This document shows positions 704-40,768 of a DNA stretch of 64,000 bases, in pieces (positions within the stretch are counted from its first letter, which is position 1; each line of letters starts with the position of its first letter). The notes below the pieces were generated by a model. It did not search any database and was not told where the DNA came from. It saw only the letters and a list, made by a program, of their open reading frames with translations. Source of the DNA: an uncultured Bacteroidales bacterium (GTDB taxonomy: Bacteria > Bacteroidota > Bacteroidia > Bacteroidales > Muribaculaceae); NCBI GenBank assembly GCA_949289215.1, contig CASENC010000038.1, forward strand, positions 22,319 to 86,318, read 5' to 3'. The position numbers and the translations under genes were made by a program.

Positions 704-738
704 TTTGGGTGTGTTAAAGAGAAATTTTTGTATGTTTG
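704..738 (+). promoter_or_regulatory. candidate Bacteroides-type promoter (TTTG 704-707; TATGTTTG 731-738)
   Basis: Exact TAnnTTTG box with an upstream TTTG 23 nt away, slightly longer than the usual 19-21 nt. It overlaps the 728 start in the ORF track, which argues for a downstream start codon. Confidence 0.4.
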
Positions 739-751
739 TGGAGTTATTAAA

Positions 752-1627
752 ATGTTTATGAAAATGGGAAAATATTTTGTTGTGGTGTTGTCGGCAATTG
801 TGCTTGCCGCTTGTTCGGGAAAAAACGGAACTGTGACCGACAACAATGGGGTGGGAGTTACTGATTTTGAGATTGGTATTGTTGAAAAATCGTTGGCTGC
901 CGATTACTTGTGTGAAGGCGATGCGACTTTTGGCGACAGTGTGAAGCTTTACACGAGAACTCATGTCACTTTGCAGTGGCCCGAAAAACTCGGCAATGCC
1001 GATGTCAAGCCCTTGCAAGACACTTTGTTGGCACGGTGTTTCGGTAATGAACGGCCGACGTCGGTTGATGAGGCAATGAGCCGTTATGTGGCCGATCCTG
1101 TAACCATGGACGACGGCAGCAGGCTTGTGCGTGTGGATTCCGTTCCCGATGTCGATATTGATGTGCGCATATTGGAGCGTAGCATCGACGTGAATGTACT
1201 CAGTGTCAACAGCCGTTATGCCGCATTTGAAATATATGGCTATATGTATGGCGGCGGAGCGCACCCGGTTTACTCGTCTTCGTTTGTGAATTTTGATGTT
1301 GCCGAAGGAAAGGTGCTGGGGTTTGACGACATAGTGCTGCCCGGACGGACAGCTGATTTGACGGAGGCCGTTAGGAGTGCATTGCGCGAGCAATATAATG
1401 CCACTACCGATGAGCAACTTCTTGAATTGGCAGGCATAAACGCTGGAGCCGTAGATTTTTCATTGCAGTCGCCTATGTTTTATTTAGATGGCAGCAATGT
1501 GGTGTTTTATTTCAACCCCTATGAAATAGGTCCTTGGGCAATCGGGGCTGTATCGGTGTCGCTGCCGTGGTATTCGCTCGACACACTTGTGCGGCACGAG
1601 GTGCTTGACTTGCTCGGTTGGCATTAA
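752..1627 (+). CDS. DUF3298/RsiV-like lipoprotein (start could also be 758 or 764)
   Basis: Lipoprotein signal VVVLSAIVLAACSG. The C-terminal FYFNPYEIGPWAIGAVSVSLPW resembles the DUF3298 signature. Confidence 0.6.
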   Translation: MFMKMGKYFVVVLSAIVLAACSGKNGTVTDNNGVGVTDFEIGIVEKSLAADYLCEGDATFGDSVKLYTRTHVTLQWPEKLGNADVKPLQDTLLARCFGNERPTSVDEAMSRYVADPVTMDDGSRLVRVDSVPDVDIDVRILERSIDVNVLSVNSRYAAFEIYGYMYGGGAHPVYSSSFVNFDVAEGKVLGFDDIVLPGRTADLTEAVRSALREQYNATTDEQLLELAGINAGAVDFSLQSPMFYLDGSNVVFYFNPYEIGPWAIGAVSVSLPWYSLDTLVRHEVLDLLGWH

Positions 1628-1666
1628 TAGTGGGCGTGATAATTGGCATTTTGCCGATTTTATGTG

Positions 1667-1674
1667 TAATTTTG
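1667..1674 (+). promoter_or_regulatory. -7 box TAATTTTG upstream of the aminotransferase gene
   Basis: Exact TAnnTTTG, 22 nt upstream of the ATG at 1696. Confidence 0.35.
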
Positions 1675-1695
1675 CAGCAAATTAATTTTATAGAC

Positions 1696-2889
1696 ATGGA
1701 GCATATATCTGAAAGGATTAAGGCAATGTCGCCGTCGGCAACGTTGGCGATGTCGCAGAAGAGCAACGAGCTGAAGGCTCAAGGTGTGGATGTGATCAAC
1801 CTTTCGGTGGGAGAACCCGACTTTTTCACCCCCGACCATATAAAAGAGGCCGCAAAGCGAGCCATCGATGACAATTTCTCGTTTTATTCTCCCGTACCCG
1901 GCTACTTGTCGTTGCGCAAGGCCATTTGTGCGAAATTGAAACGTGAAAACGGCCTTGATTTCGCTTCCGAGCAGATAATCGTGTCAAACGGTGCAAAGCA
2001 ATCGTTGTGCAACTGCATTCTTGCTGCCGTCAATCCCGGCGACGAGGTGATTATCCCCACTCCGGCATGGGTGAGCTATGTGGAGATGGTGAAACTTGCC
2101 GAGGGTAAATGTGTGCTTGTGCCTGCCTCGCTTGAACAGGATTTCAAGATTACTCCCGAACAACTTGCTGCGGCCATCACGCCGCGCACCCGCATGGTGC
2201 TGCTTTGCTCGCCGTCGAATCCCACGGGCAGCGTGTATTCGCGCGACGAATTGAAAGCTCTTGCCGATGTGATTGCCGCTCACCCCGATATCTTGGTGCT
2301 TGCCGACGAGATATATGAACATATCAATTACACCGGCGAGTTTAATTCCATCGCTCAGTTTGAAAATATACGCGACCGTGTGGCAATTGTTAACGGTGTG
2401 TCGAAGGCATATGCAATGACGGGTTGGCGTATTGGGTTCCTTGCCGCTCCACTGTGGCTTGCCAAGGCTTGCAATAAGTTGCAGGGCCAATACACATCGG
2501 GGGCGTCATCGATAGCCCAAAAGGCTGCCGAAGAGGCTTATGTGGGTCCGCAGGATTGTGTCGAAGATATGCGCCGAGCCTTCGAGCGTCGTCGTGATTT
2601 GATTGTTTCGTTGTTGAAAGAAATTCCGGGATTGAAAATAGGCAATCCCGAGGGTGCATTTTATGTGTTCCCCGAAGTGTCGGCTTATATAGGTAAGAGC
2701 TACGGCGGCCACACCATAACCACGTCGGGCGACCTGGCCCTGTACCTGCTCGACGAGGCACACGTTGCCACCGTCGATGGTGCGGCATTCTGTGCTCCCG
2801 GTTACATTCGCATGAGCTATGCCACAAGCGACGACAACATTCGCGAGGCGGCAAAGCGCATAGCCTCGGCACTTGCAAAGTTGCAGTGA
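1696..2889 (+). CDS. class I/II PLP aminotransferase, aspartate aminotransferase-like
   Basis: INLSVGEPDF near the N-terminus, PLP-lysine motif NGVSKAYAMTGWRIG, and IRMSYATS near the C-terminus. The track start at 1618 is a hydrophobic upstream extension that overlaps the previous gene. Confidence 0.85.
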   Translation: MEHISERIKAMSPSATLAMSQKSNELKAQGVDVINLSVGEPDFFTPDHIKEAAKRAIDDNFSFYSPVPGYLSLRKAICAKLKRENGLDFASEQIIVSNGAKQSLCNCILAAVNPGDEVIIPTPAWVSYVEMVKLAEGKCVLVPASLEQDFKITPEQLAAAITPRTRMVLLCSPSNPTGSVYSRDELKALADVIAAHPDILVLADEIYEHINYTGEFNSIAQFENIRDRVAIVNGVSKAYAMTGWRIGFLAAPLWLAKACNKLQGQYTSGASSIAQKAAEEAYVGPQDCVEDMRRAFERRRDLIVSLLKEIPGLKIGNPEGAFYVFPEVSAYIGKSYGGHTITTSGDLALYLLDEAHVATVDGAAFCAPGYIRMSYATSDDNIREAAKRIASALAKLQ

Positions 2890-3018
2890 CCACTTTGCCC
2901 ACACGCGTGCGGCAGGTTCCCTGATGAGAAAGATATATTTGATTTTTAGATAGACAGGCGTGAAATTTTGCGCCTCGATGAAAGTCACGAAGTGTAACAT
3001 TTTAAGTTGGCAATCATC

Positions 3019-3033
3019 GAGACGCAAAATTTT
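3019..3033. repeat. truncated half-copy of the GAGACGCAAAATTTTGCGTCTC palindrome family
   Basis: GAGACGCAAAATTTT matches the left 15 nt of the 22-nt palindrome seen three times at 40.8-40.9 kb. The right arm is degenerate. It is followed by a C6A8 tract (3040-3053). Confidence 0.5.
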
Positions 3034-3181
3034 TTCATGCCCCCCAAAAAAAATACGAGTAAGCGTAATTTTTAATATAAGTGTGAGCGAAATTGTGAAA
3101 TAACGTTGAGAATAAGCGCGGAGGCAAGTAAGATTTTGCAGATGGTCTGATATTTTAGATGAAACAAAAAAAATTGTGATT

Positions 3182-4390
3182 ATGACATCGGTAAAACTTA
3201 AATTCAGGCCATCGACGAATTCCGAAAAAGAGGGGTCGTTGATATTTCAGTTGATTCACGGGCGCACGGTGCGTAGAATCAATAGTAACTATAAAATTTT
3301 TAATGATGAATGGGACGGGGCAAACGGACGTGTCATATTGCCGCCTGCTTCTTCTCCTCGCCATGCCCCGTTGTCGCTTGTTTGTGCCAATGTGGAATGG
3401 GAAATACGGCGGTTGCGGAATATTGCCGAAGAACTGGAACATTCGGGCGATGAATGGAACCTGGAAGAGGTTTCCCGGCGGTTTGTGCCCTGTTCGGATA
3501 CGGGCTGTAGTGTGTTTAATTTTATCCATGCCCAAATCCTTAGGAAGAAACAATTGGGCAAAATGCGTTCCGGCGAGACTTATCAGGCCACATTGAATAG
3601 GTTCATGCGCTTCCGTAAAGGAATTGACCTGACATTTGACATGATGGATGCCGAACTGATGGAATTGTATGAGGCTGAAATGCTCAAACAGGGCTTGTCG
3701 CGCAACACCACATCGTTTTATATGCGCATCTTGCGTACCAATTACCGGCTTGCCGTGGAAAAAGGGTTTACGCACGACAACCGCCCCTTCAAGAATGTGT
3801 ATTGTGGCATGGACAAGACTGTGAAGCGGTGCATTACGCTTAGCGAAATCAAAAGGATAAAAGACCTTGACCTGTCGCGGCAGCCTGCGCTGGATTTTGC
3901 ACGCGATATGTTCATGTTCAGCTTCTACACGCGCGGTATGTCGTTTGTCGATATGGCTTACCTTAAAAAGACCGATTTGAAGAATGGCTTCTTGTCTTAC
4001 AGGAGGAAGAAAACCGGGCAACTGCTCACTATCGAGTGGACCGAACAGATGAAAAACATTTTTGAGAAGTACAAACCTAATCGCTCCCAATACCTGTTGC
4101 CCATCATTACCAAGGAAGACGGAACCGAGCGCCGGCAGTATCAGAATCAGATGAAAAGAATCAACCGCAAGTTGAAAGATGTTTCTGTTTCGGCAAAATT
4201 GGCAATATCATTGTCGCTTTATTACAGCCGCCACAGTTGGGCCACTATCGCGCGAGAGAAAGGAATTCCCTTGTCGGTAATCAGCGAGGGGCTTGGCCAT
4301 AACTCTGAAACTACCACGCAAATCTATCTCGATTCGATAAAGTCGAGTGAAGTTGACAAGGCAAACCGGAAAATCATGAAAGACCTTTGA
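3182..4390 (+). CDS. tyrosine site-specific recombinase (phage-integrase family, Bacteroides type)
   Basis: The C-terminal catalytic region YYSRHSWATIAREKGIPLSVISEGLGHNSETTTQIYL carries the HxxR...H...Y signature. The N-terminal SAM-like domain is typical of Bacteroidetes integrases. An alternative GTG start lies at 3176. Confidence 0.88.
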   Translation: MTSVKLKFRPSTNSEKEGSLIFQLIHGRTVRRINSNYKIFNDEWDGANGRVILPPASSPRHAPLSLVCANVEWEIRRLRNIAEELEHSGDEWNLEEVSRRFVPCSDTGCSVFNFIHAQILRKKQLGKMRSGETYQATLNRFMRFRKGIDLTFDMMDAELMELYEAEMLKQGLSRNTTSFYMRILRTNYRLAVEKGFTHDNRPFKNVYCGMDKTVKRCITLSEIKRIKDLDLSRQPALDFARDMFMFSFYTRGMSFVDMAYLKKTDLKNGFLSYRRKKTGQLLTIEWTEQMKNIFEKYKPNRSQYLLPIITKEDGTERRQYQNQMKRINRKLKDVSVSAKLAISLSLYYSRHSWATIAREKGIPLSVISEGLGHNSETTTQIYLDSIKSSEVDKANRKIMKDL

Positions 4391-4400
4391 CGGCTTTTTG

Positions 4401-4453
4401 TGTTTCACAAAAATAAGCATCTCCTAATGGGAGACGGCCATTTTTGTGAAACA
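4401..4453. repeat. nested 53-nt palindrome immediately 3' of the recombinase gene
   Basis: Perfect 13-nt arms TGTTTCACAAAAA / TTTTTGTGAAACA (4401-4413 / 4441-4453) surround the mini-palindrome TCTCC-TAATG-GGAGA (4420-4434). Both are centred on position 4427. Confidence 0.85.
4420..4437. repeat. left inverted repeat (IR-L) TCTCCTAATGGGAGACGG
   Basis: 17 of 18 nt are complementary to 4593-4610. Confidence 0.85.
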
Positions 4454-4572
4454 ATTAAAAATTAGTTGTTTATTGTATCAGAAAAGTAAGAAATAGTGAA
4501 ACAAACGGGTTGTTGTTACATGAAAAACGTAAATAAAATCGCTAAAAATGAGTATGGAATGAAATTATTTAG

Positions 4573-4580
4573 TACCTTTG
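4573..4580 (+). promoter_or_regulatory. -7 box TACCTTTG inside the IR-bracketed segment, facing the capsule locus
   Basis: Exact TAnnTTTG, 12 nt upstream of IR-R. No convincing -33 TTTG at the expected spacing. Confidence 0.4.
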
Positions 4581-4592
4581 TGACGTGAAAGT

Positions 4593-4610
4593 CCGTCTCC
4601 CATTAGGGGA
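4593..4610. repeat. right inverted repeat (IR-R) CCGTCTCCCATTAGGGGA
   Basis: Reverse complement TCCCCTAATGGGAGACGG differs from IR-L at one position. Confidence 0.85.
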
Positions 4611-4994
4611 CGGCCGTTTAGCCCACTATGTAGTTGAGTTTCGTTACTTATTGCATAGCCAGTATAGCAGAAGATGATGGGTGAGTACATAAGCATTTGT
4701 ATATATATGATGTGTCATGTGTAACTACTTGTAATACTGCAACTTAATATAGATTGCAGGATTAAAAGAAATGCATCTTGCTGAAGTATTGGCCGATTTG
4801 AGTCCGGCATACTTATCCCCCCTTATTCATATTAGTAACTTATCCACTCTTGGACAAAATAGGATTCCAATATTGTTTCCACGGCAGACGGGAAACGCAG
4901 ATATGGAATGTTTCAAGGATGTAGATAGAAATTGTGTGTCATTGCATTGCGCCCGATCCATCGGAGCGTAAAGCTTTATCTCCCCCTTTATATT

Positions 4995-5426
4995 ATGGTC
5001 ATCGCCGTGGATTTTGACGGGACAATCGTTGAGCACCGTTATCCTGAAATAGGTAAAGAGCTGCCTTTCGCCATTGCCACCCTGAAGAAATTGCAGGCCG
5101 AACGGCACTTGCTGATATTATGGACTGTGCGTGAAGGAAAATTGCTTGACGAGGCCGTTGAATTTTGCCGCCGGCGAGGATTGGAATTCTATGCAGTCAA
5201 TGCCAATAATCCCGACGAGCAGGTTCCTTCACACCCCTCGTGCCCTTGCCGCAAATTGCAAGCCGACCTGTTCATCGACGACCGCAACGTGGGCAAGCTC
5301 CCCGACTGGGGCGCCATCTACGAGATGGTCCACAACCACCTGAGCTACCGCCGCTACCTGGCAAGCCTTGATGCAAACTGCGGTGATGACAAGAAGTCTT
5401 TCTGGCAACGCCTGATAGGAAAATGA
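4995..5426 (+). CDS. small HAD-superfamily-like hydrolase of unknown function
   Basis: N-terminal MVIAVDFDGTIVE is a DxDGT nucleophile motif. A later FIDDRN may be motif IV. The start was chosen at the DxD-proximal ATG rather than the track start at 4932. Confidence 0.55.
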   Translation: MVIAVDFDGTIVEHRYPEIGKELPFAIATLKKLQAERHLLILWTVREGKLLDEAVEFCRRRGLEFYAVNANNPDEQVPSHPSCPCRKLQADLFIDDRNVGKLPDWGAIYEMVHNHLSYRRYLASLDANCGDDKKSFWQRLIGK

Positions 5427-6505: not shown

Positions 6506-7942
6506 ATGTCGGAATTAAAGGAAAAGACCGTAAAAGGGGTGATGTGGAGCAGTATCGACCGCTTCTCCACGCAAGGCATACAGTTTGTTTTCAGCATATT
6601 GATTGCACGGCTGTTGCTGCCCGAGGATTACGGAGTGGTGGCGATGTTGAATATCTTCATGTCGGTTTCACAGAAATTTATCGACAGCGGATTCAGCACG
6701 GCTTTAATCAGAAAATCGGATAGAACAGATATTGATTTCTCTACTGTCTTCTATTTCAATATTGCAGTAAGCATCTTTTTCTATGCCGCATTATGGATTG
6801 CTTCGCCTTACATTGCCGCATTTTATAACATACCGCTATTGGAAGATGTTACCAAGGTTGTGGCTCTCAACCTGGTTATTTCATCATTTGCTGGTATTCA
6901 AAGTGCCAAGCTCACCATTGCCATTAATTTTAAGAGTCGTGCAATAATATCGGTCTCGTCAACTGTGCTGACAGGTTCCGTAGGATTGTGGATGGCATAT
7001 AACGGCTATGGTGTATGGGCTTTAGTCTTTCAGTCTATTTTCGGCTCATTGTTTTGCACCGTAATGCTTTGGCTTTTTGTTCGCTGGATGCCTCGGTTGG
7101 CTTTCTCATGGAAATCATTTCGAGAGCTGTTTTCGTTTGGTTCAAAGTTGCTTGCATCGGGGCTGCTCGACACCATATATAATAATGTATATACGCTGGT
7201 CATCGGAAAATTCTTCTCATCGTCGGCATTGGGTGTGTATTCCCGGGCTGACGGATTGGCACAATATCCTTCATCGAATATTACAAATGTGCTCCAGGGG
7301 GTTACGTTTCCGGTATTATGTTCCATCCAGAATGATATGGAACGCTTGGCCAATGCTTATAAACGTTTTTTGCGCCTTTCGGCTTTCGTAGTGTTTCCCT
7401 TGATGGTGGGGCTGGCTGCGGTGGCCGACCCATTGATACGGTTAGTACTAACCGACAAATGGGAAGGTGCCATATACTTGCTGCAAATTTTGTGCTTTTC
7501 AATGATGTGGTACCCAATACATGCCATTAACTTGAATTTGCTGCAAGTGAGGGGCCGCTCCGACTTTTTCCTTAAAGTGGAGGTTATAAAAAAAATACAA
7601 GGTGTCATTGTGCTTTGCGTCACCTTGCCGTTGGGTGTCGTCGCCATGTGTTATGGCCGAATTGTCGGCTCGTTGCTGTCTTTGATATACAACACTTATT
7701 ATACAAAGAAACTTATCGGTTACGGGTATTTTGCCCAAATGAAAGACCTGTTGCACATCCTGCTCCATTCGTTGGTTATGGGTGTGTGTGCATGGTCGGT
7801 TGTGCAAGCCTTTGATTCCCGGTGGTTGCAATTGACCGTCGGCATTCTGGCCGGTGCCGCCTATTATATAATCGGAGCCAAGCTGATGCGTTTCGAGGAA
7901 TTTGACGAATTGGTTTCATTGATTCGTAAAAAAGGAAAATAA
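6506..7942 (+). CDS. wzx: Wzx-type oligosaccharide flippase (MOP/polysaccharide biosynthesis protein family)
   Basis: 478-aa multi-TM protein. The N-terminus KGVMWSSIDRFSTQGIQFVFSILIARLLLPEDYGV is typical of RfbX/Wzx. Confidence 0.8.
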   Translation: MSELKEKTVKGVMWSSIDRFSTQGIQFVFSILIARLLLPEDYGVVAMLNIFMSVSQKFIDSGFSTALIRKSDRTDIDFSTVFYFNIAVSIFFYAALWIASPYIAAFYNIPLLEDVTKVVALNLVISSFAGIQSAKLTIAINFKSRAIISVSSTVLTGSVGLWMAYNGYGVWALVFQSIFGSLFCTVMLWLFVRWMPRLAFSWKSFRELFSFGSKLLASGLLDTIYNNVYTLVIGKFFSSSALGVYSRADGLAQYPSSNITNVLQGVTFPVLCSIQNDMERLANAYKRFLRLSAFVVFPLMVGLAAVADPLIRLVLTDKWEGAIYLLQILCFSMMWYPIHAINLNLLQVRGRSDFFLKVEVIKKIQGVIVLCVTLPLGVVAMCYGRIVGSLLSLIYNTYYTKKLIGYGYFAQMKDLLHILLHSLVMGVCAWSVVQAFDSRWLQLTVGILAGAAYYIIGAKLMRFEEFDELVSLIRKKGK

Positions 7943-26873: not shown

Positions 26874-27995
26874 ATGAATGAAAATGAATTGAAAATATTG
26901 CAACTTGGCAAGTTTTATCCCATCCAGGGTGGCGTGGAGAAAGTTGCCTATGACTTGATGGAAGGATTATCTGAGCAAAACATCCGTTGCGACATGATGT
27001 GTGCCGCCACGCAAGGTGCAGGCCGGGTGATTCCCGTCAACGAATACGCGAATGTCATCTGCTGCCACACTTGGTTTAAGGCTGCTGCCACGATGATAAC
27101 GCCTCAGATGATTTTCTCATTAGGGAAAACGTGCAAACAATATGACATCATTCATGTGCACCATCCCGACCCGATGGCATGCCTTGCGCTGTGGCTTTCG
27201 GGTTACAAGGGTAAAGTCATTCTGCACTGGCACGCCGACATACAGAAGCAGCGAATGTTGCTCCGTCTGTACCGGCCTCTGCAACATTGGCTTCTGCACC
27301 GGGCCGACCGGATTGTGGTGACATCTCCGGTATATTTGGCCGAGTCTCCTTTCCTGGAAGGTGTAAGGCACAAGGCCATTTGCCTGCCCATTGGCGTGAA
27401 GGCCATGCAGCCCGAGCCTGAATTGGTGGCAAAGATTAAAAGCCGGTATCCGGGCAGGAAAATCGTCTTTTCGTTGGGTCGCCTGGTTCCCTACAAAGGC
27501 TATTATCACCTGGTCGAGGCCGCCAAATACCTTAGCGACGACTATGTGGTGCTGATAGGCGGAACGGGCATCTTGAAAGACGAATTGGAAAAAGAAATCA
27601 AGGAATTCGGGCTGCAAAACAAAGTGGAACTGCTGGGACACGTCAGCGACGAAGACCTGCCGGCCTATTACGGAGCTTGCAGCGTGTTTTGCCTGAGCAG
27701 CGTTCAACGGACCGAGGCATTTGGCATCGTGCAGATTGAAGCCATGTCGTGTGGCAAGCCCATAGTTGCCACAAATATTCCTCAAAGCGGTGTGTCGTGG
27801 GTAAATGCCCACGGTGTCTCGGGGCTGAATGTGGAACCGGGCAAAGCCAAGGAGCTGGCAAGAGCCATAAAAGAAATTACCATGGACGAAGCGACATACC
27901 GGAAATACGCTTCGGGTGCCAAAAGTCGCTACAATGAATTATTTACCAAAGAGCAAATGATAAATAACTGCATAAAGATATATAAAGGGTTATGA
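26874..27995 (+). CDS. glycosyltransferase family 4 (GT-B)
   Basis: LGRLVPYKGYYHLVEAA and SSVQRTEAFGIVQIEAMSCGKPIVATN. The ATG at 26874 is preferred over the GTG at 26859. Confidence 0.8.
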   Translation: MNENELKILQLGKFYPIQGGVEKVAYDLMEGLSEQNIRCDMMCAATQGAGRVIPVNEYANVICCHTWFKAAATMITPQMIFSLGKTCKQYDIIHVHHPDPMACLALWLSGYKGKVILHWHADIQKQRMLLRLYRPLQHWLLHRADRIVVTSPVYLAESPFLEGVRHKAICLPIGVKAMQPEPELVAKIKSRYPGRKIVFSLGRLVPYKGYYHLVEAAKYLSDDYVVLIGGTGILKDELEKEIKEFGLQNKVELLGHVSDEDLPAYYGACSVFCLSSVQRTEAFGIVQIEAMSCGKPIVATNIPQSGVSWVNAHGVSGLNVEPGKAKELARAIKEITMDEATYRKYASGAKSRYNELFTKEQMINNCIKIYKGL

Positions 27996-28663
27996 AAAGA
28001 GAAGTGACAACCTTAACTAAAACATTAGAGTTAAGTATGATGGACAGTGAACAAGAAAATTGTGATGGAATGTCGCCGGTCGAGCGTGCAATCAAGCGTG
28101 GCTTCGATGTGCTGGCAAGTGCCCTGGGCTTACTTTTGGCATCCCCATTTTGCCTGCTGATATATCTCCTTATCAAGCGCGAAGATGGCGGGCCGGCAAT
28201 CTTTAAGCAAGAGCGCATAGGCTATGGCGGGAAGCCGTTCACCCTGTACAAATTCAGGTCGATGGCTATTACTTCGGAAAAAGACGGGAAACCCGAGCTT
28301 TGCCAAAAAGAAGACAAGCGACTGACTAAAATCGGCCGTTTCCTGCGCGAACACCATTTGGACGAGCTGCCGCAGCTGTGGAACGTGTTGAAGGGTGAAA
28401 TGAGTTTCGTAGGCCCACGGCCCGAACGCAAGTTCTTCATCGACCAAATCATGGCTGTAAATCCCGACTATGAATTATTGTACCAGTTGCGTCCCGGATT
28501 GTTCTCGTCGGCAACCCTGTATAACGGTTACACCGACACAATGGAAAAGATGCTTATCCGCCTCATGATGGACCTGGAATATCTGCGCAGGCGCACGCTG
28601 TGGCTCGATTTCAAGATAATTTTCCTTACTGTGTTTTCCATCCTTACGGGAAAGAAATTTTGA
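27992..28663 (+). CDS. small monotopic phosphoglycosyl transferase (bacterial sugar transferase family; priming enzyme)
   Basis: [70 protein letters not shown]. Confidence 0.88.
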
Positions 28664-30125: not shown

Positions 30126-31012
30126 TACCGACAACCTGTTATTACCGTGTGGCCGATTTCACCTTTTCGGTAACCATGGCCGGGGAAGCCGACGTGGACG
30201 CACTGCTGCCGTCGTTCAGGCCGTTCAAGGCCGGCGAGAATGGCAGCCGCCTGCTCGACTTCACGGTGGTGCCTGCGGGCGAGGTTCCCACGGCAGGCGA
30301 GGGCGATTTGCTTGAGGTGGCCGACAATGATATGGGGCACCTGAAGCTATACGCCGCAGCCGGCGGGTATGTGGTCGAGGTTGCCAATGGCAGCCACACC
30401 CACCGCATGGCAGCCACCGCCGACTTTTCTCGCGTAAAGGCCTGCATCCTGCCGCATGACCGGCGTGCGGGCAATGCGTTGTCGTCGATGTTGCGCATCG
30501 CTTTTGCCCAGGCCATATTGCTGCACGGCGGCATATCCATTCATGCTGCGGCCGTGCACTGTGCCGGTAAGGCCTACCTGTTCATGGGAACGAGCGGAAC
30601 GGGCAAGAGCACTCATGCCTCGCTGTGGATAAAGCATATCCACGGGTCGGGACTGCTGAACGACGACAACCCGGCAATACGCATCATCGATGGCAAGGCC
30701 TATGTTTACGGCACGCCGTGGAGCGGAAAGACGGCCTGCTACCGCAACCTGTCGTTCCCCATCGGCGGCATGGTGCGCCTGGCACAGGCACCTGTCAACC
30801 GTTTCCACCGGCAAGAGGGCGTGGACGCATTCGTCACTATATATCCCGGCTGCTCGGTGATAGCCGGTGACAAGCGGTTGCACAACCGGCTCTACGACAC
30901 GGTGTCGGAGCTTGCCGGAATGGTCACCGTGGGCTTCATGGAGTGCCTCCCCGATGCCGATGCCGCACAGGTGTGCCACCGGGCATTGACCGCCGGCGAT
31001 AAAGAGGCGTGA
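30122..31012 (+). CDS. HPr kinase/phosphorylase C-terminal-domain-like P-loop kinase
   Basis: LHGGISIHAAAVHCAGKAYLFMGTSGTGKSTHASLW...LLNDDNPAIRIIDGKAYVYGTPWSGK parallels the HprK core (G-x-SG-x-GKS ... DD). ATGA overlap with the upstream gene. The track start at 30005 was rejected. Confidence 0.65.
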   Translation: MIPTTCYYRVADFTFSVTMAGEADVDALLPSFRPFKAGENGSRLLDFTVVPAGEVPTAGEGDLLEVADNDMGHLKLYAAAGGYVVEVANGSHTHRMAATADFSRVKACILPHDRRAGNALSSMLRIAFAQAILLHGGISIHAAAVHCAGKAYLFMGTSGTGKSTHASLWIKHIHGSGLLNDDNPAIRIIDGKAYVYGTPWSGKTACYRNLSFPIGGMVRLAQAPVNRFHRQEGVDAFVTIYPGCSVIAGDKRLHNRLYDTVSELAGMVTVGFMECLPDADAAQVCHRALTAGDKEA

Positions 31013-31056
31013 TTGGAAACCCAAATAACCAGTTAAACCAACTTTTTTTTAAACTA

Positions 31057-31854
31057 ATGAATATCAACAAACAATTTCTGTGGGCAGGCTTGCTTGCCCT
31101 GTTGCTGATGACCTCATGCTCGTCGAAGAAGGATTTCATTTACCTTGCCGACATGAAGGTGGGAAACAAATACCCCATTGAATCGAAATACGAGCCTGTC
31201 ATTCACAGCGATGACCTGCTTAGTATTACCGTAAGTTGCAAAAATCCCGAATTGGCCATTCCGTTCAACATATATGGCGGCTCGTTCAAGGTGGGTACCG
31301 ACGGCAATGTGACGGCCGATGTTTCATCTTCGGCCAAAGAGAAAGGATACCGGGTTGACGTGGACGGCAACATCGATTTCCCCATCCTGGGCAAGTTGCA
31401 CATCGAGGGCATGACCGTGAGTGCCGTCAAGCAACTTATTTGCGACCTGATTGTGGCCGGCAACTACATGAAAGACCCGCTGGTGTCGATTGAGTTCCTT
31501 AACTTCAAGTACACCGTGTTGGGGGCCGTGGGCGGCAACGGCACATACTCGTCGAAGGGCGACCGCGTGACCATTCTCGATGCAATTGCCAATGCCGGCG
31601 ACCTTAATGCCAAGGCGCGAATCGACCGCGTGGCCGTCATACGCGAAATCGACGGCGAGCGGCAGATTTTCATGCACGACCTTAACAGCACCAGTATCTT
31701 CAACTCGCCTTGCTTCTACTTGCAGCAAAACGACATCGTGTATGTGGAACCGAAATACCGCAAGAAAGACAACGAAGACCGCGGCTGGCAAATCGCAACC
31801 ATGTTGCTGTCGCTTACTTCGGTCGTGTGCTCGGTGTTGTGGGTGATAAAGTAA
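31057..31854 (+). CDS. wza: Wza-type polysaccharide export outer-membrane lipoprotein
   Basis: Lipoprotein signal LLALLLMTSCSS, a Poly_export motif (DDLLSITV), and an SLBB-like segment YTVLGAVGGNGTY...ILDAIANAGDL. Confidence 0.85.
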   Translation: MNINKQFLWAGLLALLLMTSCSSKKDFIYLADMKVGNKYPIESKYEPVIHSDDLLSITVSCKNPELAIPFNIYGGSFKVGTDGNVTADVSSSAKEKGYRVDVDGNIDFPILGKLHIEGMTVSAVKQLICDLIVAGNYMKDPLVSIEFLNFKYTVLGAVGGNGTYSSKGDRVTILDAIANAGDLNAKARIDRVAVIREIDGERQIFMHDLNSTSIFNSPCFYLQQNDIVYVEPKYRKKDNEDRGWQIATMLLSLTSVVCSVLWVIK

Positions 31855-31874: not shown

Positions 31875-34220
31875 ATGCAAACTAACAATTCAACGAAGAA
31901 CGAGCAAGGCCTGAACCTGATGGACCTGCTTGTTTATCTGGCCTCAAAATGGAAGTGGTTCCTGCTTTCCATTCTGGTGTGTGGAGGCATTGCGTGGTAT
32001 AACTACGCGCGTGCGCCGCTGGTGTACTTCCGGTCGGCAACCATCATCATCAAGGACCCGTCTAACAAGACTGCTACCTCGGGCCTTGACCGTTTCGACA
32101 ACATCATCAACAAGGTTAACGTGGCCAACGAGCTTATTCAGTTCAGCTCGAAGCGGCTGCTCAGGGAAGTGGTGCAGCGTGTGCATGCCGACGTGAACTA
32201 CCGCGTGGAAGACGGCTTGCGCAGCCGCGAGCTTTACACCAAGTCGCCCGTGCTTGTCACATTCCTCGACGCCCTGCCCGAGCAGGCTTTCTCGATGGTG
32301 ATGACACCGATTGATGACAAGACGGTGTCGCTGACACGGTTCTCGGGGGATGAAAGCTCCACGGCACTCACCATCGCGCTCAACGACACGGTGGCGCTGG
32401 CCAACGGTGTGCGCATAATTGCCACTCCCACCAATTATTACAACGAGTCGTGGATGGGCCGGCCCATACAGGTGAGCAAGCGGCCGCTCGAGGCTGTAGT
32501 CAATCACTACAAGGGTGCCATCGGCATAAGGCAGGAAGACGAGGAATCATCGATACTGAACCTTGCGCTGAAGGACAATTCTCCCGAGCGGGCCGAGGAT
32601 ATGCTGAATATGCTCATCACCGTGTATAACGAGGAAGCCATCAAAGACAAGAACCAGGTGGCGGTGAACACGGCCAACTTTATCAGCGAGCGACTTATCA
32701 TCATCGAAAACGAGCTGGGCGGCGTGGAATCTGAACTGGAATCGTTCAAGCAGCGCAACCAGGTTATCGACATCGCCTCGTCGGCAAGCATGTATATGAG
32801 CGAATCGCAGAAGTACAGCACCGACGCGCTGGAGCTGGAAACGCAGTTGCGCCTTGCCGATTACATCAAGGATTACCTCACCGACCCCACCAAGGAGCGT
32901 GACCTTATCCCGTCGAACACCGGTATCGGCGACATGAACATCGAGAACCAAATCAACCTCTACAACACGGCCAAGCTGAAGCGCGACCGCCTGATTGACG
33001 ACAGCAGCGAAAACAATCCCGTGGTGCAAGAGCTCAACAATACGCTCCGTGCCATGAAGCAGAACATTATCCGCGCCGTTGACAATATGATTGTGAGCCT
33101 GAAGGTGAAGCGCAACGATGCGCAGAACCGCGAGTTGCAAGCCCAGAACCGCGTGACGGCCATCCCCACCAAGGAACGCCAGATGCTCTCGATCGAACGC
33201 CAGCAGAAAATCAAGGAAGCCCTGTACCTGTTCCTGCTTAACAAGCGCGAGGAAAACGCACTGTCGCAGGCCATGGCCGACAACAACGCGCGTGTAATCG
33301 ACCCGGCCGACGGCAGCGACGCGCCCATCTCGCCGCAGCGCAACCGCATATTGCTGCTGGGGCTGCTTGTGGGCATTGTGCTGCCCGGCGTGGGCTGCCT
33401 GCTGGTACTGTTCATGGACACCCGCGTGCATGGCCGCAAAGACCTGGAGCGGGCACTCAGTGTGCCGTTCCTGGGCGAGATACCGTTTGAGAAGAAAGCG
33501 TCGAAGCGAAAAGGTGGCGACAGCGGGGAGATAGACGAAGACGGCATCGTGGCCGAGGCCTTCCGTGTGCTGCGCACCAATATGGCTTTCATGTCGCGGA
33601 AAGACCACCCCGTGCAGGTGATTACTTTCACGTCGTTCAACGAGGGGGCCGGCAAGACATTCATCTCGCGCAACTTAGGCATGAGTTTTGTATATGCCCA
33701 CAAGCGGGTACTGCTGCTTGACCTTGACATTCGCAAGGGAACGCTGAGCCGCCACTTTGGCGACCACCACAACGGTGTAACCGAATACCTGGCCGACCCG
33801 TCGGTTGCCATCGACGACATCGTTCGCCACTTGGATGGCTTCGACCTGATTCCGTCGGGCGCGGTGGCTCCAAATCCCGCCGAACTGCTCATGGACGAGC
33901 GGCTCGACGAACTGGTGGCCGAGTTGCGCAAGCGTTACGACATAATCATAGTTGACAATGTGCCCATGGGCATGATTGCCGATGCCAGCATCGCCAACCG
34001 CATTGCCGACCTCACGGTGTTTGTGGTGCGTGCCGGTCGCCTCGACCGCCGTCAGCTGCCCGACATCGAGTCGCTTTACGAGGGCCACAAGCTGCGTAAC
34101 ATGGCACTGGTGCTCAACGGTGTTGACCCCAACAGCCACCACGGTTACGGTTACGGCTATGGCTACGGCTACGGCTATGGCTACGGTTACGGCTACGGAA
34201 AACGAAAAAAGCAGAAGTGA
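31875..34220 (+). CDS. wzc: Wzc-type chain-length determinant / BY-kinase (tyrosine autokinase) fusion
   Basis: N-terminal Wzz-like TM domain, coiled-coil periplasmic region, second TM segment, Walker A SFNEGAGKTF, A' LLLDLDIRKG, Walker B IIIVDNVP, and a C-terminal (GY)9 tyrosine tail. Confidence 0.88.
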   Translation: MQTNNSTKNEQGLNLMDLLVYLASKWKWFLLSILVCGGIAWYNYARAPLVYFRSATIIIKDPSNKTATSGLDRFDNIINKVNVANELIQFSSKRLLREVVQRVHADVNYRVEDGLRSRELYTKSPVLVTFLDALPEQAFSMVMTPIDDKTVSLTRFSGDESSTALTIALNDTVALANGVRIIATPTNYYNESWMGRPIQVSKRPLEAVVNHYKGAIGIRQEDEESSILNLALKDNSPERAEDMLNMLITVYNEEAIKDKNQVAVNTANFISERLIIIENELGGVESELESFKQRNQVIDIASSASMYMSESQKYSTDALELETQLRLADYIKDYLTDPTKERDLIPSNTGIGDMNIENQINLYNTAKLKRDRLIDDSSENNPVVQELNNTLRAMKQNIIRAVDNMIVSLKVKRNDAQNRELQAQNRVTAIPTKERQMLSIERQQKIKEALYLFLLNKREENALSQAMADNNARVIDPADGSDAPISPQRNRILLLGLLVGIVLPGVGCLLVLFMDTRVHGRKDLERALSVPFLGEIPFEKKASKRKGGDSGEIDEDGIVAEAFRVLRTNMAFMSRKDHPVQVITFTSFNEGAGKTFISRNLGMSFVYAHKRVLLLDLDIRKGTLSRHFGDHHNGVTEYLADPSVAIDDIVRHLDGFDLIPSGAVAPNPAELLMDERLDELVAELRKRYDIIIVDNVPMGMIADASIANRIADLTVFVVRAGRLDRRQLPDIESLYEGHKLRNMALVLNGVDPNSHHGYGYGYGYGYGYGYGYGYGKRKKQK
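34143..34196 (+). repeat. tandem hexanucleotide repeat (GGYTAY)x9 encoding the (Gly-Tyr)9 tail of Wzc
   Basis: Read directly: ggttac ggttac ggctat ggctac ggctac ggctat ggctac ggttac ggctac. Confidence 0.9.
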
Positions 34221-34475: not shown

Positions 34476-36938
34476 ATGAAACTTAAATCGTATTTGTATG
34501 CACCGTTGTGCAGTGCAATGGTGCTTTTTGCAATGTCGGCTTGTTCCGACGATTTAATCGATAACGACAATGGCAATCGCCCCCAGGGCAATGGCATTCA
34601 GTTTGGTGCAAGAGCCTCGTATGCCGGTGATGACACCCGCACCGAGTATGGCGATTACAGCCAGGACGGGCTCAGCCAGGAGATACGCTGGACGGCAGGC
34701 GACCAGGTGGAAATTTATTCGCCCGAATCGCCCAATTCCAAGCAGACGGCATATGAAGTTGACTACATCGGCGGTGCCGAAGGTACCGGCGACCGTGGCT
34801 CGGCACTTCTTGCATCACTTGGCGGCGACGGCCTGCAATGGAACAGGACTAACGCAACGCAAAAGTTCTATGCCATCTATCCTTCGGTGCAAAGCATAGC
34901 GAACACTGCCGTTAAGAACATGGTAAGCTTTGAGAACGGTGTCCTCAAGGGATATGTGCCTATCAACCAGCAGCACACCATCACTAAGGACGGTACAGTT
35001 TGGACGGCTACCCCAAATATGGATTACCTTTACATGGCTGCCATACAGGAAAATCCGGTGCCTGCCATAGACGAGGACGGTGCTGTGAACCTTAGCTTCC
35101 AACCGTTGACCACCACGCTGGAAATCACCATCGAAGGCCCCACCGAAAGGCCGCTTGCTTCGTTGAACGTATTTTCAGACAATGTGCCTGTGGTAGGTCA
35201 CTTCACCTGCGACCTGACTGCCGAGGCCGGCACGGACGGTTATCCGCAGTGCGTATCGACGCAAGAGGGAACTACCAACACTTATGCCACCGTCAGCCTT
35301 TACTATGATGATAACGGCACACAGCGACCGTTGTCGTTGGCCGAAGGCGAAAGCGTCACGCTCAATGTGTTCTTGTTGCCTGTAGAGCCGCTTACTAATG
35401 TGAAAATCCGTATTGCCGGCTTCAACTCGGCAAGCAAGAGCATGACGCTTGACACCGACCCGAAGACGGGCAGCAAAATCACGCTTAATCCTCACAAGAA
35501 GACTCGCGTGACCATTCCTGCGCCTAAGATTGGTACGGAGACGAACAACTGGATTACCGGCATCGAGGACAACGTGTATGTGTCGCAGCTCTCAATCCCG
35601 GGTACGGCCAACTCGTTCTCTTATAATTACCCCCAAAATGGTGAAAATCGTACATGGTATGTGGCACAGACTGCCAATTTTGAGAAGCAGTGGAATGCAG
35701 GTATCCGCTGCTTCGAGCTGAAGTGCCCCGAAACTACCGGCGACCTTGGTAACGTTGTCTTGCAGTGTAACCGTAATGATTTGGGTATTACATTCAAGCA
35801 GGCGGTTGACATGATATGGGACAAAGTGCAAAATTCTGGCGAATTTGCCATGATTATCCCGGCATACGAGTCCGGTTCCGGTCACGAAAGCGGCTCGAAT
35901 GCCGCGCACACCGCTGTGCGCAACTTTGCCAATGCGCTGAACACGTTCTATGACAACAACTCGCAATATGAATATATCACCTACGGACGCAATATCACTG
36001 TGGGCCAGGCTCGAGGCAAGCTGATGTTTGTGGCACGCATCACCTCGGAAGAGGATGAGGGTGCAATCAGCGACATTATTCCAAAACAGGGTGTATTCAT
36101 CGAGGGCTGGGGTTCGCTGAAAGACCTGTGGGAACGCCGCGGATATGGCAAGGCTAACTGGGCTAAATGGAGCAATAACAGCTTTGATGGCAACAGTACG
36201 GACTATATGGAGTATTACATGGTTAACGGAAACACCAGTTCAGACCTCAGCTTCTCTTATGCCGGACCTACCGGGCCAACCGGTGCGAAGAATTTCATGC
36301 ACACAACCATACGCAGTGATGCTTCTACCGGTACAGCTTATATACATGACTGGAACCGTGTGTCGCCTAAAAACAAAAATTATAACTTATATAATAATTC
36401 GTCTTATGGACGGGATTATGTACAAAACTGCTACTGGCCGGAATCATTTATAGAAAAATGTGGGGATGTATGGAACACATTCCTGGCTGCTATCGAGGAT
36501 AACAACAATCAACAGGGTAGTACATTCTATATCAATTCGCTTGACGGATACTATATAGATGAAAACATTCCATTGAGTTATAAGCCATATATCGCAGGTC
36601 GTGGAGATGAAGGAGGAACTTGGCCTTCTGATTGGTCTTACGGTTACGGCGATGGTGGTACAGCCGGTAACATTCAGGCCTATGCAGCCGATATTAACAA
36701 CTATTTCTATGGCAAAATTCTTGACTATGGTGCCGACAATATCTATGGCCCGATGAATGTGGTATTGTTGGATATGGTTTACGCATCGGACGATATGACC
36801 GACCCGGGTTCGTATCTGCCATCGGTAATCATCAACAATAACTATCGCTTCCCGTTGATTACAAAAAAAGATAACGGCGGAAGCAGCACCAACAGCGCCG
36901 ATGCCTCTTACAGCAACGGCGGCAACGTTTGGGAGTAA
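34476..36938 (+). CDS. surface lipoprotein: fimbrillin-like N-terminal region fused to a PI-PLC-like (PLC-like phosphodiesterase TIM barrel) domain with substituted catalytic residues
   Basis: Lipobox LFAMSACS and WTAGDQVEIYS (fimbrillin-like). The C-terminal motifs LSIPGTANS, AGIRCFELK, VVLQCNRN, GKLMFVARI, TFYINSLDG and MNVVLLDMV are collinear with Bacillus PI-PLC motifs IPGTHDS, ARIFDIR, IVLHHGP, GKIVLLKR, LYINFTS and WVIQDY. Confidence 0.6.
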   Translation: MKLKSYLYAPLCSAMVLFAMSACSDDLIDNDNGNRPQGNGIQFGARASYAGDDTRTEYGDYSQDGLSQEIRWTAGDQVEIYSPESPNSKQTAYEVDYIGGAEGTGDRGSALLASLGGDGLQWNRTNATQKFYAIYPSVQSIANTAVKNMVSFENGVLKGYVPINQQHTITKDGTVWTATPNMDYLYMAAIQENPVPAIDEDGAVNLSFQPLTTTLEITIEGPTERPLASLNVFSDNVPVVGHFTCDLTAEAGTDGYPQCVSTQEGTTNTYATVSLYYDDNGTQRPLSLAEGESVTLNVFLLPVEPLTNVKIRIAGFNSASKSMTLDTDPKTGSKITLNPHKKTRVTIPAPKIGTETNNWITGIEDNVYVSQLSIPGTANSFSYNYPQNGENRTWYVAQTANFEKQWNAGIRCFELKCPETTGDLGNVVLQCNRNDLGITFKQAVDMIWDKVQNSGEFAMIIPAYESGSGHESGSNAAHTAVRNFANALNTFYDNNSQYEYITYGRNITVGQARGKLMFVARITSEEDEGAISDIIPKQGVFIEGWGSLKDLWERRGYGKANWAKWSNNSFDGNSTDYMEYYMVNGNTSSDLSFSYAGPTGPTGAKNFMHTTIRSDASTGTAYIHDWNRVSPKNKNYNLYNNSSYGRDYVQNCYWPESFIEKCGDVWNTFLAAIEDNNNQQGSTFYINSLDGYYIDENIPLSYKPYIAGRGDEGGTWPSDWSYGYGDGGTAGNIQAYAADINNYFYGKILDYGADNIYGPMNVVLLDMVYASDDMTDPGSYLPSVIINNNYRFPLITKKDNGGSSTNSADASYSNGGNVWE

Positions 36939-37041
36939 AAAACTGCGCACGATTTAGCCGGGCGGTAACGGAGTTGCCGCTACCGCTCGGTTAAACCATT
37001 AACAAAACGAATTATAAACCTAAAAATAAACACGAACCAAA

Positions 37042-39195: not shown

Positions 39196-39223
39196 GGTTC
39201 GTGTTTCACGACTCTATTCCGTG

Positions 39224-39258
39224 GCCGGGGGAAACATGGAACTCCGGCCCCGGCTTTT
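39224..39258 (+). terminator. possible rho-independent terminator
   Basis: Stem GCCGGGG/CCCCGGC (39224-39230 / 39248-39254) followed by TTTT. The loop is long (17 nt). Confidence 0.4.
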
Positions 39259-39289
39259 AAGCAAAGCAATTATTTAAACAATAACAATC

Positions 39290-40489
39290 ATGATTAAAAA
39301 AACATTTATTGCAGCCATTTGTCTTGCGGCTGCAAGTACGGCTTTTTCACAGGAAGCCGTAACAGACGACGTTGTAGTCGAAGAAACGATTGAGTATAGC
39401 ACCGACAAGCACAAGGTAGAGACCAACGGCTTTTGGAGCAACTGGTTTGTGAGTGCCGGTGCCGGTGTGCAGATGTACTTCGGCGACCACGACAATAATC
39501 TTAAATTCGGCAAGCGCCTGTCACCGTCTCTCGACATTGCCGTGGGCAAATGGTTCTCGCCCGAAATTGGTGTGCGATTGATGTACAACGGCCTTTCGGC
39601 AAAGGGAGCCACCCGTTGGGGTGTGGCCCATTCCACCGGCGATTTGGTTGAAGGTTGGAACTCGGGGCTTTACAAGTCGAAATTCAACTATTTCAACTTC
39701 CAAATCGATGCAATGTTCAACTTCACCAACATCGTTTGCGGCTACAAAGAGGATCGCTTGTATAACTGCAGCCCCTATGTGGGTGTGGGTGTGATGAAGG
39801 TGACCGATGATCCCAAGGAAGCTGCCCTCTCGGGCCACTTTGGTATCATGAACTCGTTCCGCATAAGCTCGGCCATCGACATCAACCTTGACCTGCGCGG
39901 CACACTCACGAGCGACGAGCTCGACGGCGAGCCGGGCGGACGCTGGGGCGAAGGCCTCTTTGCCGCTACCGTGGGCATTACCTACAAAATCAACCCGCGT
40001 GGCTGGAACCGCAGCAAGACGGTGGTTCGTAACGTGTATAACAATGCCGAACTTAACGCCATGCGCGAGAAGCTGAACCGCATGAACGAGGAGAATGCCC
40101 GCCTGCAAGCTGCACTTGCCGAGGCCGACAAGGCAAAGGCACAGACCGTGGTGAAACAAATTGCATCGAGCAGCCTTATCGTGTTTGAAATCGGGCAGAG
40201 CAAACTCTCGAACCAGGCTCGCGTGAACCTGGGTATGCTTGCCGAAATCATCAAGCAGGGTGACCCATCGACCAAATACACCATCACCGGTTATGCCGAT
40301 GCCGGAACGGGCAGCAAGAAACTCAACGAACGCTTGAGCAAGGCCCGCGCCGAAGCCGTTCGCGACTGCCTGGTTGACGAATTTGGCGTTGACGAGTCGC
40401 AACTCGTCATCGACTACAAGGGCGGTGTTGAGAATATGTTCTATGACGACCCGCGCATGAGCCGTGCCGTTATCACCACAAGCAAATAA
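39290..40489 (+). CDS. OmpA-family outer-membrane protein (beta-barrel, coiled coil, OmpA_C peptidoglycan-binding domain)
   Basis: Signal peptide, alternating-pattern barrel region, the coiled coil NAELNAMREKLNRMNEENARLQAALAEADKAK, and TGYADAGTGSKKLNERLSKARAEAVRDCL. Confidence 0.85.
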   Translation: MIKKTFIAAICLAAASTAFSQEAVTDDVVVEETIEYSTDKHKVETNGFWSNWFVSAGAGVQMYFGDHDNNLKFGKRLSPSLDIAVGKWFSPEIGVRLMYNGLSAKGATRWGVAHSTGDLVEGWNSGLYKSKFNYFNFQIDAMFNFTNIVCGYKEDRLYNCSPYVGVGVMKVTDDPKEAALSGHFGIMNSFRISSAIDINLDLRGTLTSDELDGEPGGRWGEGLFAATVGITYKINPRGWNRSKTVVRNVYNNAELNAMREKLNRMNEENARLQAALAEADKAKAQTVVKQIASSSLIVFEIGQSKLSNQARVNLGMLAEIIKQGDPSTKYTITGYADAGTGSKKLNERLSKARAEAVRDCLVDEFGVDESQLVIDYKGGVENMFYDDPRMSRAVITTSK

Positions 40490-40641: not shown

Positions 40642-40768
40642 GTGTTTTATACCACGCCCCGCAGTGCGAGTTTGTCGCGATTCATATTGGTAAGGTGGCT
40701 GTTTTTTGTCATTGTATTTCGTAGATAATAGCTTATTTACAGTGTTTTTATGCAAAATGGTAGTTGTA

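Follow-up and report, generated by a model that had tools for sequence, protein, structure and literature searches.

A probable tyrosine-recombinase-linked promoter inverton in front of a 29-kb capsule operon from an uncultured Bacteroidales bacterium

We analysed a 64,000-nucleotide stretch of DNA from an uncultured Bacteroidales bacterium (contig CASENC010000038.1 of assembly GCA_949289215.1; the whole stretch is called the window here), in which a short intergenic region lies between a tyrosine recombinase gene and a 29-kb capsule operon. The element in this region is best explained overall as a tyrosine-recombinase-linked promoter inverton, of a class common in Bacteroidales and here in its ON orientation, a reading that we hold to be very probable; that it belongs to this class of capsule-promoter switch we regard as nearly certain. 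Its parts are as follows.

3182–4390, plus strand: tyrosine site-specific recombinase, putative invertase, 402 amino acids (aa), from Pfam domains and invariant residues
4401–4453, no strand: extended palindrome centred on the left site, present in the ON state only; predicted hairpin of the recombinase 3' untranslated region (UTR)
4420–4437, no strand: putative left recombination site (left inverted repeat, IRL): TCTCC half-site, TAATG asymmetric centre, GGAGA half-site, followed by CGG
4438–4592, no strand: putative invertible segment in ON orientation, 155 bp, colinear with the ON form of locus L091 and of a size typical of the ~45 homologous loci
4573–4580, plus strand: candidate Bacteroidota −7 box TACCTTTG, 12 nt inside the right arm and facing the capsule locus
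4593–4610, no strand: putative right recombination site (right inverted repeat, IRR): CCG followed by TCTCC-CATTA-GGGGA, its outer half-site mutated, with G4608 instead of the expected A
4611–4994, plus strand: predicted leader (5' UTR) with a hairpin motif and the remnant of a upxY start, aligned with L091, L099, L003 and L002

The two arms of the element, TCTCCTAATGGGAGACGG on the left and CCGTCTCCCATTAGGGGA on the right, are complementary at 17 of 18 positions, exactly so over a 15-nt core (4423–4437 against 4593–4607), and the left arm starts 30 nt past the stop codon of the recombinase (TGA, 4388–4390). Either arm is also palindromic in build—TCTCC-TAATG-GGAGA on the left, TCTCC-CATTA-GGGGA on the right—a feature overlooked in the initial annotation of this DNA. 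Being individually palindromic, the arms therefore look like direct repeats as well, and their orientation is set only by the asymmetric 5-nt centre and the flanks; the left arm, in addition, forms the middle of the longer palindrome, which has 24-nt arms. An exact 15-nt inverted repeat at a spacing of 40–500 bp is expected by chance 0.055 times per 64-kb window, and at least one was present in 4% of 200 Markov shuffles; rescaled to the ~600-bp intergenic region, the expectation is, by our own estimate, about 5e-4. No further copy of the arm core was found in the window, where the sole match with two mismatches, at 41268, is at chance level. The −7 box is the only plus-strand TAnnTTTG in the intergenic spaces between 4391 and 34220, with none in the five operon gaps longer than 100 nt, and would be the active promoter, with transcription starting at about 4586–4588, within the invertible segment. 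A generic sigma-70 promoter scan was set aside as uninformative for Bacteroidota. Beyond the leader, 28 open reading frames (ORFs), all on the plus strand, fill the operon from 4995 to 34220, and 22 of their 27 junctions overlap or are at most 31 nt long, the other five measuring 103, 207, 220, 343 and 381 nt. The initial annotation had described this anatomy correctly, from the inverted repeat, its 155-bp bracket and its distance from the recombinase stop to the capsule-facing box near the right repeat and the co-oriented genes with mostly short or overlapping junctions.

Two smaller features lie around the arms. The motif GTGAAACA occurs in three copies, at 4401–4408 (inverted), 4446–4453 and 4497–4504, and the flank outside the left arm, at 4408–4415, reads TATTTTTG when taken on the minus strand, a formal TAnnTTTG match aimed at the 3' end of the recombinase, which is probably a by-product of the A/T-tract flanking the half-sites.

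Direct evidence that switches of this kind flip comes from the nearest relatives. A recombinase 81% identical to that of the window (P0010) is encoded, as an identical copy, on contigs from ten different samples, all of which agree fully over the 300 nt that precede the switch and, wherever the contig is long enough, over the 150 nt that follow it. Between these unchanged flanks, the 152-bp segment stands in the ON orientation in L091, L092, L095 and L098, which are identical to one another, and in L096, which is one base off, and it is the exact reverse complement (152 of 152 positions), thus OFF, in L089, L090, L093 and L094; the contig of L097, broken 8 nt into the segment, reads OFF as well. 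A homologous switch, in other words, inverts in natural populations of close relatives. The switch of the window is colinear with the ON form of the P0010 loci across the left flank, both arms, the promoter-distal GTGAAACA motif, the −7 box and the leader, and is therefore taken to be a homologue of a naturally flipping switch in its ON state; the colinear alignment with L091 agrees with the view of the initial annotation that the switch had been captured in the ON orientation. In L002, which encodes the nearest genomic homologue of the recombinase (78% identical, from a Muribaculaceae metagenome-assembled genome, MAG), the region 7240–7840 holds three recombination sites, with promoter end and leader present twice and facing opposite ways, and a 70-nt perfect inverted repeat. 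The bracket of the window matches one of these copies on the minus strand (69%), and its promoter half the second copy on the plus strand (77%); either two invertible regions lie side by side here, the arrangement of class IP-ARG-2 (PMC8748976), or the assembly has fused both switch states into a chimera. As a separate observation, a 728-aa coupling protein of the TraG/type IV secretion system (T4SS) kind is encoded 50 nt upstream of the recombinase in L089–L102, and capsule switch modules may thus lie at the edge of a conjugative element.

The same cassette recurs at greater distance. The recombinase family is large, with more than 8000 matches at E < 1e-20, and our comparison set comprised 80 genome loci with recombinases 42–78% identical to that of the window. 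About 45 of the 80 carry an inverted repeat 3' of the recombinase, mostly starting 27–41 nt past the stop codon, with arms of 15–28 nt, a bracket of 134–171 bp and a common site design, TCTCY-N5-RGAGA. The 5-nt centre is palindromic in none of 50 loci and reverse-complementary between the two arms of a locus in all 50; it varies from locus to locus, yet the two arms of any one locus co-vary. As far as sequence can tell, the arms are laid out like the core site of a tyrosine recombinase, in which two half-sites flank an asymmetric crossover region. The half-sites vary by clade, TCTCC/GGAGA predominating among recombinases at least 75% identical to that of the window and TCTCT/AGAGA in the 42–55% clade. 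A TAnnTTTG box lies 5–17 nt inside one arm in 38 of the 44 scorable loci, facing the recombinase (OFF) in 31 and the cargo (ON) in 7, and internal segments of related loci can align better when one is turned around: L052 and L059 are 85% identical reverse-complemented against 60% directly, and L007 and L009 77% against 53%.

Contigs also tend to end at the switch. Of the 80, 16 stop no more than 600 nt downstream of the recombinase (8 of these 2–61 nt past the match), against 6 upstream. Those ending within a few tens of bases past the recombinase stop are L005, L006, L018, L028, L045, L056, L058, L062, L097, L102 and L103, and in the last two, which encode the related recombinase P0006, the contig runs exactly to the end of the left arm. 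Mixed orientations would seem to break assemblies systematically at this point, which would explain why metagenomic contigs so often end at the recombinase-side arm.

Besides capsules, the cassette fronts defence, restriction-modification and fimbrial genes. Behind it in L005–L081, where the recombinases are 42–55% identical to that of the window, we found ORFs for UpxY or capsule proteins (10) and DISARM DrmD-like SNF2 helicases (4), together with Eco57I/N6 methylases, restriction-modification enzymes, DUF6079, DUF3575/DUF5119 fimbrial-type proteins, AraC regulators, SrfB and BspA-LRR proteins. Among Prevotellaceae and rumen MAGs, phase variation of anti-phage defence seems to be common, and phase-variable defence and surface genes have been reported in Bacteroides thetaiotaomicron (bioRxiv 10.1101/521070), in line with this wider cargo. 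One further locus stands apart: in L004:7207–7960 (a Bacteroidaceae MAG, recombinase 73% identical), a TGTTTCAC motif follows the stop codon with no recognisable switch downstream, and the gene may be an orphan recombinase or have lost its switch by deletion.

In the mechanism that we propose, the recombinase encoded at 3182–4390 would bind as dimers to two core sites, 4420–4434 and 4596–4610, in each of which an asymmetric 5-nt centre separates two half-sites of 5 nt, TCTCY and RGAGA. Strand exchange would take place inside the identical centres (TAATG/CATTA) and, the two sites being mutually inverted, would therefore flip the 155-bp segment between them. The segment would carry a single Bacteroidota promoter, with its −7 box 12 nt from one end. 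As the segment now stands, transcription from this promoter would run rightward, first across the right site and a 385-nt leader and then along the 29-kb capsule operon; in the flipped state the promoter would be aimed at the 3' end of the recombinase, leaving the operon silent. The junctions to be expected in the flipped form of 4438–4592 are ...GGGAGACGG|ACTTTCACGTCAC... and ...TGTTTCACAAAAATGG|CCGTCTCC...

The leader retains the mark of a gene that the window no longer has. In L003, L089–L096 and L099–L101, the order is switch, leader, UpxY antiterminator and then a homologue of the first gene of the window's operon, and the UpxY products of L003 and L091 score 122 and 128 bits against a cutoff of 100. 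A motif of the form TGTAAC...CTGCAA-N11-TTGCAGGATTA is common to the window (4720–4800), L002, L003 and L089–L101, and sits just 5' of the upxY start position in the relatives; within it, a conserved hairpin at 4720–4773 pairs CTGCAA (4737–4742) with TTGCAG (4754–4759), followed by GATTA. By analogy with the leaders of Bacteroides fragilis, which contain UpxY recruitment (ops) pause sites (PMC12632263, PMC11685472), also in a pause-hairpin form (PMC11685472), this hairpin is probably a UpxY recruitment or pause element. Where the relatives have ATGGCTGAT at the upxY start codon, the window has TTGGCCGAT at about 4789–4797, and beyond this remnant come about 190 nt of unrelated sequence, in which a 66-aa ORF at 4771–4971, within the replaced upxY region, matches no family. 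A search of switch and leader against Rfam returned sub-threshold noise only. The alignment shows the missing upxY to be, at the level of the sequence, a secondary loss with the leader retained.

Several results weigh against the reading of this locus as a working switch of the class. An OFF form of the exact locus was not found: a look-up of the identical recombinase gave only one other assembly, L001 (ERZ17292903), which is identical to the window and ON. A scan of metagenome contigs with TCYCCTAATGGGAGACGG, covering either arm in either state, gave 7 chance matches with no other similarity to the window, and exact-protein look-ups from the operon side were no more productive, the HAD phosphatase at its start being unrecorded with either start codon and the acyltransferase leading to a 1.3-kb contig that does not extend to the switch. 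Inspection by eye showed no clear −33 TTTG element, and the window holds no UpxY homologue (best tblastn E-values 0.43 and 2.1; no Pfam or NCBIfam match), just as the initial annotation had noted that none follows the switch; UpxY is reported, in earlier work cited by PMC12632263 and PMC11685472, to be necessary for capsule synthesis in B. fragilis. The link between recombinase and site in this family member is drawn from comparison. Finally, the sole mismatch between the arms, G4608, turns the outer right half-site (4606–4610) into GGGGA for GGAGA at its position 3; across 47 other loci, 184 of 188 half-sites have T at this position (A on the other strand), and the four exceptions reflect a register shift within one locus.

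Some of these points give substance to a rival explanation, that the element is an inverton by descent whose promoter is now fixed ON, with the 29-kb operon perhaps poorly transcribed in the absence of upxY. G4608 may slow the switch or lock it in that state, given the conservation of its position, and half-site mutation is a laboratory route to locking such switches (PMC4611039); both available assemblies are ON, and upxY degeneration behind invertible promoters is documented (PMC8748976). Together, the mutated half-site and the lost upxY suggest regulatory decay. Against a locked switch stand the intact recombinase, three intact half-sites of four and two intact centres, as well as the 28 operon ORFs, which are open and tightly joined and so argue against a long silence, and two assemblies are too few to demonstrate a fixed state. 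Tyrosine recombinases often tolerate one weakened half-site, as mutant lox sites illustrate. We consider a locked switch credible but somewhat unlikely and lean, with limited confidence, towards this copy still inverting at a useful rate, the reserve being due to the one mutated half-site and the lost upxY. The capsule ON/OFF switch put forward in the initial annotation is accordingly upheld in its anatomy, its capsule locus, its family membership and, through the 81% relatives, its inversion, while flipping of the exact locus has not been seen.

A related possibility concerns the operon and leaves the promoter inverton in place. The window's operon might keep its own switch and the leader hairpin (4720–4773) but depend, for full-length transcription over 29 kb, on UpxY supplied in trans from a paralogous phase-variable locus. 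One candidate donor is the locus of the 81% identical recombinase in the same sample, which has a near-identical leader motif. We judge such dependence unlikely; were it true, expression would need two independent switches to be ON together, an AND gate between capsule loci and the reverse of the known cross-inhibition by UpxZ.

The recombinase itself looks functional. It is intact and three-domain (Arm-DNA-bind_5, Phage_int_SAM_5, Phage_integrase) and can be aligned with XerD and XerA across the RHxxA...LGH...Y motifs; R251, K277, R350, H351, H373 and Y382, the last being the nucleophile, are invariant in 17 family members down to 42% identity, and the protein agrees with these members at every invariant column. 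A serine facing the first catalytic arginine in the XerD alignment had raised the possibility of a dead enzyme, which we rejected: TRGMSFVD is invariant throughout the family, so that the serine reflects a family-wide alignment shift and no defect.

That this adjacent enzyme catalyses the inversion is likely, given its tight linkage to the site, the match between half-site variant and recombinase clade, and a bracket that lacks an Mpi-type repeat; the term "dedicated" used for it in the initial annotation is plausible. Catalysis could instead come in trans, either from a serine invertase that acts globally, as Mpi does, or from a paralogous tyrosine recombinase encoded at another place in the genome. 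Within or near 4391–4994 there was no match to ARACGTTCGT, which we take to be the Mpi inverted-repeat motif, and the five matches with one mismatch elsewhere are at chance level. In B. fragilis, Mpi alone flips seven capsule promoters (PMC12632263, PMC1892571), and the sample of L001 also contains the paralogous 81%-recombinase locus L094 (both ERZ17292903), whose sites differ from those of L001 only in the centre and one half-site base. The coupling of recombinase gene to site in about 45 loci and the locus-specific centres speak against supply in trans, as does the agreement between half-site variant and clade, and we hold it to be decidedly unlikely.

The 3' end of the recombinase gene may itself respond to the state of the switch. 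Its 3' UTR includes the left arm, so that the long hairpin is formed only in the ON state, with a folding energy of −27.3 kcal/mol against −14.9 in the modelled OFF form; the observed P0010 forms give −24.1 (ON) and −9.3 kcal/mol (OFF). It is a matter of speculation that this hairpin exerts orientation-dependent control over the recombinase, for which fimE of Escherichia coli, whose control depends on switch orientation, provides an analogue. A T-run of at least four occurs in 13 of 44 outer-left flanks of the homologous loci against 1 of 44 outer-right flanks, and a terminator-like hairpin with a T-tract was scored at the window's left arm on the minus strand; the 81% relatives carry a T-tract past the cargo-side arm as well. 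The recombinase-side arm and its T-tract might, as a weak inference, form a conserved terminator that shields the recombinase from OFF-state transcripts.

We rejected as the main explanation a mobile-element integrase, with the repeats as element ends or att-like sites, and think it very improbable. Some features would fit it: the recombinase has the Pfam domains found in integrases of phages and conjugative transposons, the TraG-like protein stands directly upstream in the 81% relatives (and in the P0006 loci), a tRNA-Ser gene lies at 524–611, related invertase-linked switches are often found on integrative and conjugative elements (ICEs; PMC8748976), and recombinase and capsule locus are missing at the same position in strains with a 93% identical aminotransferase. 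In L104–L106, compared with window 728–4390, the pair of DUF3298 and aminotransferase genes is 93% identical to that of the window, a HigB/HTH toxin-antitoxin pair and unrelated genes stand in place of recombinase and capsule locus, and the module therefore sits in a variable region, as is usual for capsule loci. The repeats, however, are inverted, 155 bp apart and enclose a promoter only, the tRNA gene is 2.6 kb from the recombinase behind two conserved, syntenic housekeeping genes, and the relatives show inversion of the segment without excision. No conjugation or mobility genes were present among the scanned flanking genes of the window; direct repeats bounding the 31-kb module were not searched for. 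A mobile or variable location is no conflict with switch function, because the event observed is an inversion with unchanged flanks.

It is hardly credible that the arms are hairpin terminators or repetitive extragenic palindromes that share a stem by chance and never recombine: each arm is self-complementary, the left one has its terminator-like hairpin and T-tract and another palindromic repeat family exists in the window (40766–40940), but a T-tract is missing at the right arm, each of 50 loci out of 50 has 5-nt loops that are exact reverse complements of each other, and the homologous segment is found flipped in relatives, which effectively refutes this for the element family.

Switches of this class have been known since 2007, and the window's copy is an ordinary, real member, unusual only in the loss of upxY with a kept leader, the mutated half-site and the probable Muribaculaceae host. 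Xu et al. 2007 (PMC1892571) found a tyrosine recombinase directly upstream of upxY at 5 of 9 capsular polysaccharide (CPS) loci in B. vulgatus, 11 of 13 in B. distasonis and 4 of 8 in B. thetaiotaomicron, with inversions visible in the assemblies. Later surveys (PMC11892184, PMC8748976) describe tyrosine invertase genes with an invertible region directly 3', Bacteroides-promoter invertons linked to upxY, some loci with two adjacent invertible regions, and upxY degeneration; upxY after the switch is thus frequent and not universal in the literature, its degeneration being described in PMC8748976. The CPS switches of gut Bacteroidales (B. thetaiotaomicron, Phocaeicola vulgatus, Parabacteroides distasonis) share with the window the upstream recombinase, the repeat-flanked Bacteroidota promoter and the co-oriented capsule locus; that of P. 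vulgatus ATCC 8482 (L072) agrees in site design (TCTCT-TATTA-AGAGA), with a bracket of 165 bp, whereas the window differs from them in the TCTCC/GGAGA variant as well as in the three peculiarities just named. The IP-ARG classes (Yan et al. 2022, PMC8748976), in which invertible promoters beside an invertase regulate antibiotic-resistance genes, derive from glycan-locus switches, with upxY intact or partly or fully degenerated, sometimes with two adjacent invertible regions (compare L002) and often on ICEs (compare the TraG protein upstream of the P0010 loci); the window instead has a complete capsule locus as cargo, no resistance genes and no ICE genes among the scanned flanking genes.

More distant systems share the principle. 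The Mpi promoters of B. fragilis (PSA–PSH) also turn capsules on and off by promoter inversion and have long leaders, but Mpi is a single global serine invertase encoded elsewhere and acting on another repeat motif, whereas the window has a local tyrosine recombinase. In the E. coli fimS switch, as in the window, recombinases are encoded beside a short promoter inverton and the recombinase transcript runs into the switch, so that its 3' end varies with orientation; fimS measures 314 bp, has 9-bp repeats and is served by two recombinases, FimB and FimE. There is no sequence relationship between the two, and orientational control in the window would be speculative. The BT1927 S-layer switch of B. 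thetaiotaomicron and Tsr26 of B. fragilis (PMC4611039; bioRxiv 10.1101/521070), a sister class, likewise combine a local tyrosine recombinase with a promoter inverton that has imperfect-palindrome arms, and mutation of a single half-site can lock the switch; unlike the window, that class has GTTAC-N7-GTAAC arms, which are absent from the window's arms, a segment of 256–301 bp (155 bp in the window) and lipoprotein/OmpA cargo.

In Bacteroidales, susceptibility to phages, recognition by the immune system and colonisation of the gut are determined by phase-variable capsules, and correct annotation of their switches therefore matters for metagenomes. The comparison yields a signature that can be read without sequencing reads: TCTCY-N5-RGAGA sites, a bracket of ~155 bp usually ~30–40 nt past the recombinase stop, and a −7 box 5–17 nt from one arm. 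In principle little is new, the class being extended to an uncultured lineage that probably belongs to the Muribaculaceae. With upxY lost, its leader kept and one half-site mutated, this copy offers a natural case in which to study the decay or fixation of such switches.

The operon and its assigned functions can be summarised as follows.

4995–5426, plus strand: first operon gene, BT0820-family HAD-type phosphatase (NCBIfam NF046079, 202 bits against a cutoff of 165)
5434–34220, plus strand: capsular polysaccharide biosynthesis and export genes, from domain searches
6506–7942, plus strand: Wzx flippase
27992–28663, plus strand: Bac_transf, initiating sugar transferase
31009–31854, plus strand: Wza
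31875–34220, plus strand: Wzc

The first product matches PDB 2obb (E = 8e-50) and is 62.5% identical to its L091 counterpart, which is encoded second there; in the relatives this gene comes after upxY. Other products of the operon include the acyltransferase, a DegT aminotransferase, WbqC and GT4 glycosyltransferases. The GC content is 36–45% across 4–26 kb against 48–57% in the flanks. Upstream lie housekeeping genes for Rpe, a DUF3298 protein and a class I/II aminotransferase, and the named relatives of the last, at 80–84% identity, are Muribaculaceae MAGs; with the Muribaculaceae origin of L002, gene similarity indicates that the host is probably a member of the Muribaculaceae and not of Bacteroides proper.

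After the capsule locus, and in the same orientation, 34476–40489 encodes an 820-aa protein without a Pfam match, an Mfa-like fimbrillin (37042–39195) and an OmpA-family protein (39290–40489). Further on, a perfect 22-nt palindrome, GAGACGCAAAATTTTGCGTCTC, occurs in three intergenic copies (40769–40790, 40851–40872 and 40919–40940), next to which, at about 40970, stands a TACCTTTG box. A half copy, GAGACGCAAAATTTT, is found at 3019–3033, about 150 nt 5' of the recombinase start, and the GAGACG and A/T-tract of the palindrome resemble a recombination half-site with its flank (GGAGACGG-CC-ATTTTTG). The palindrome at 40766–40940 may serve as a protein-binding site or be an extragenic palindrome peculiar to the species.

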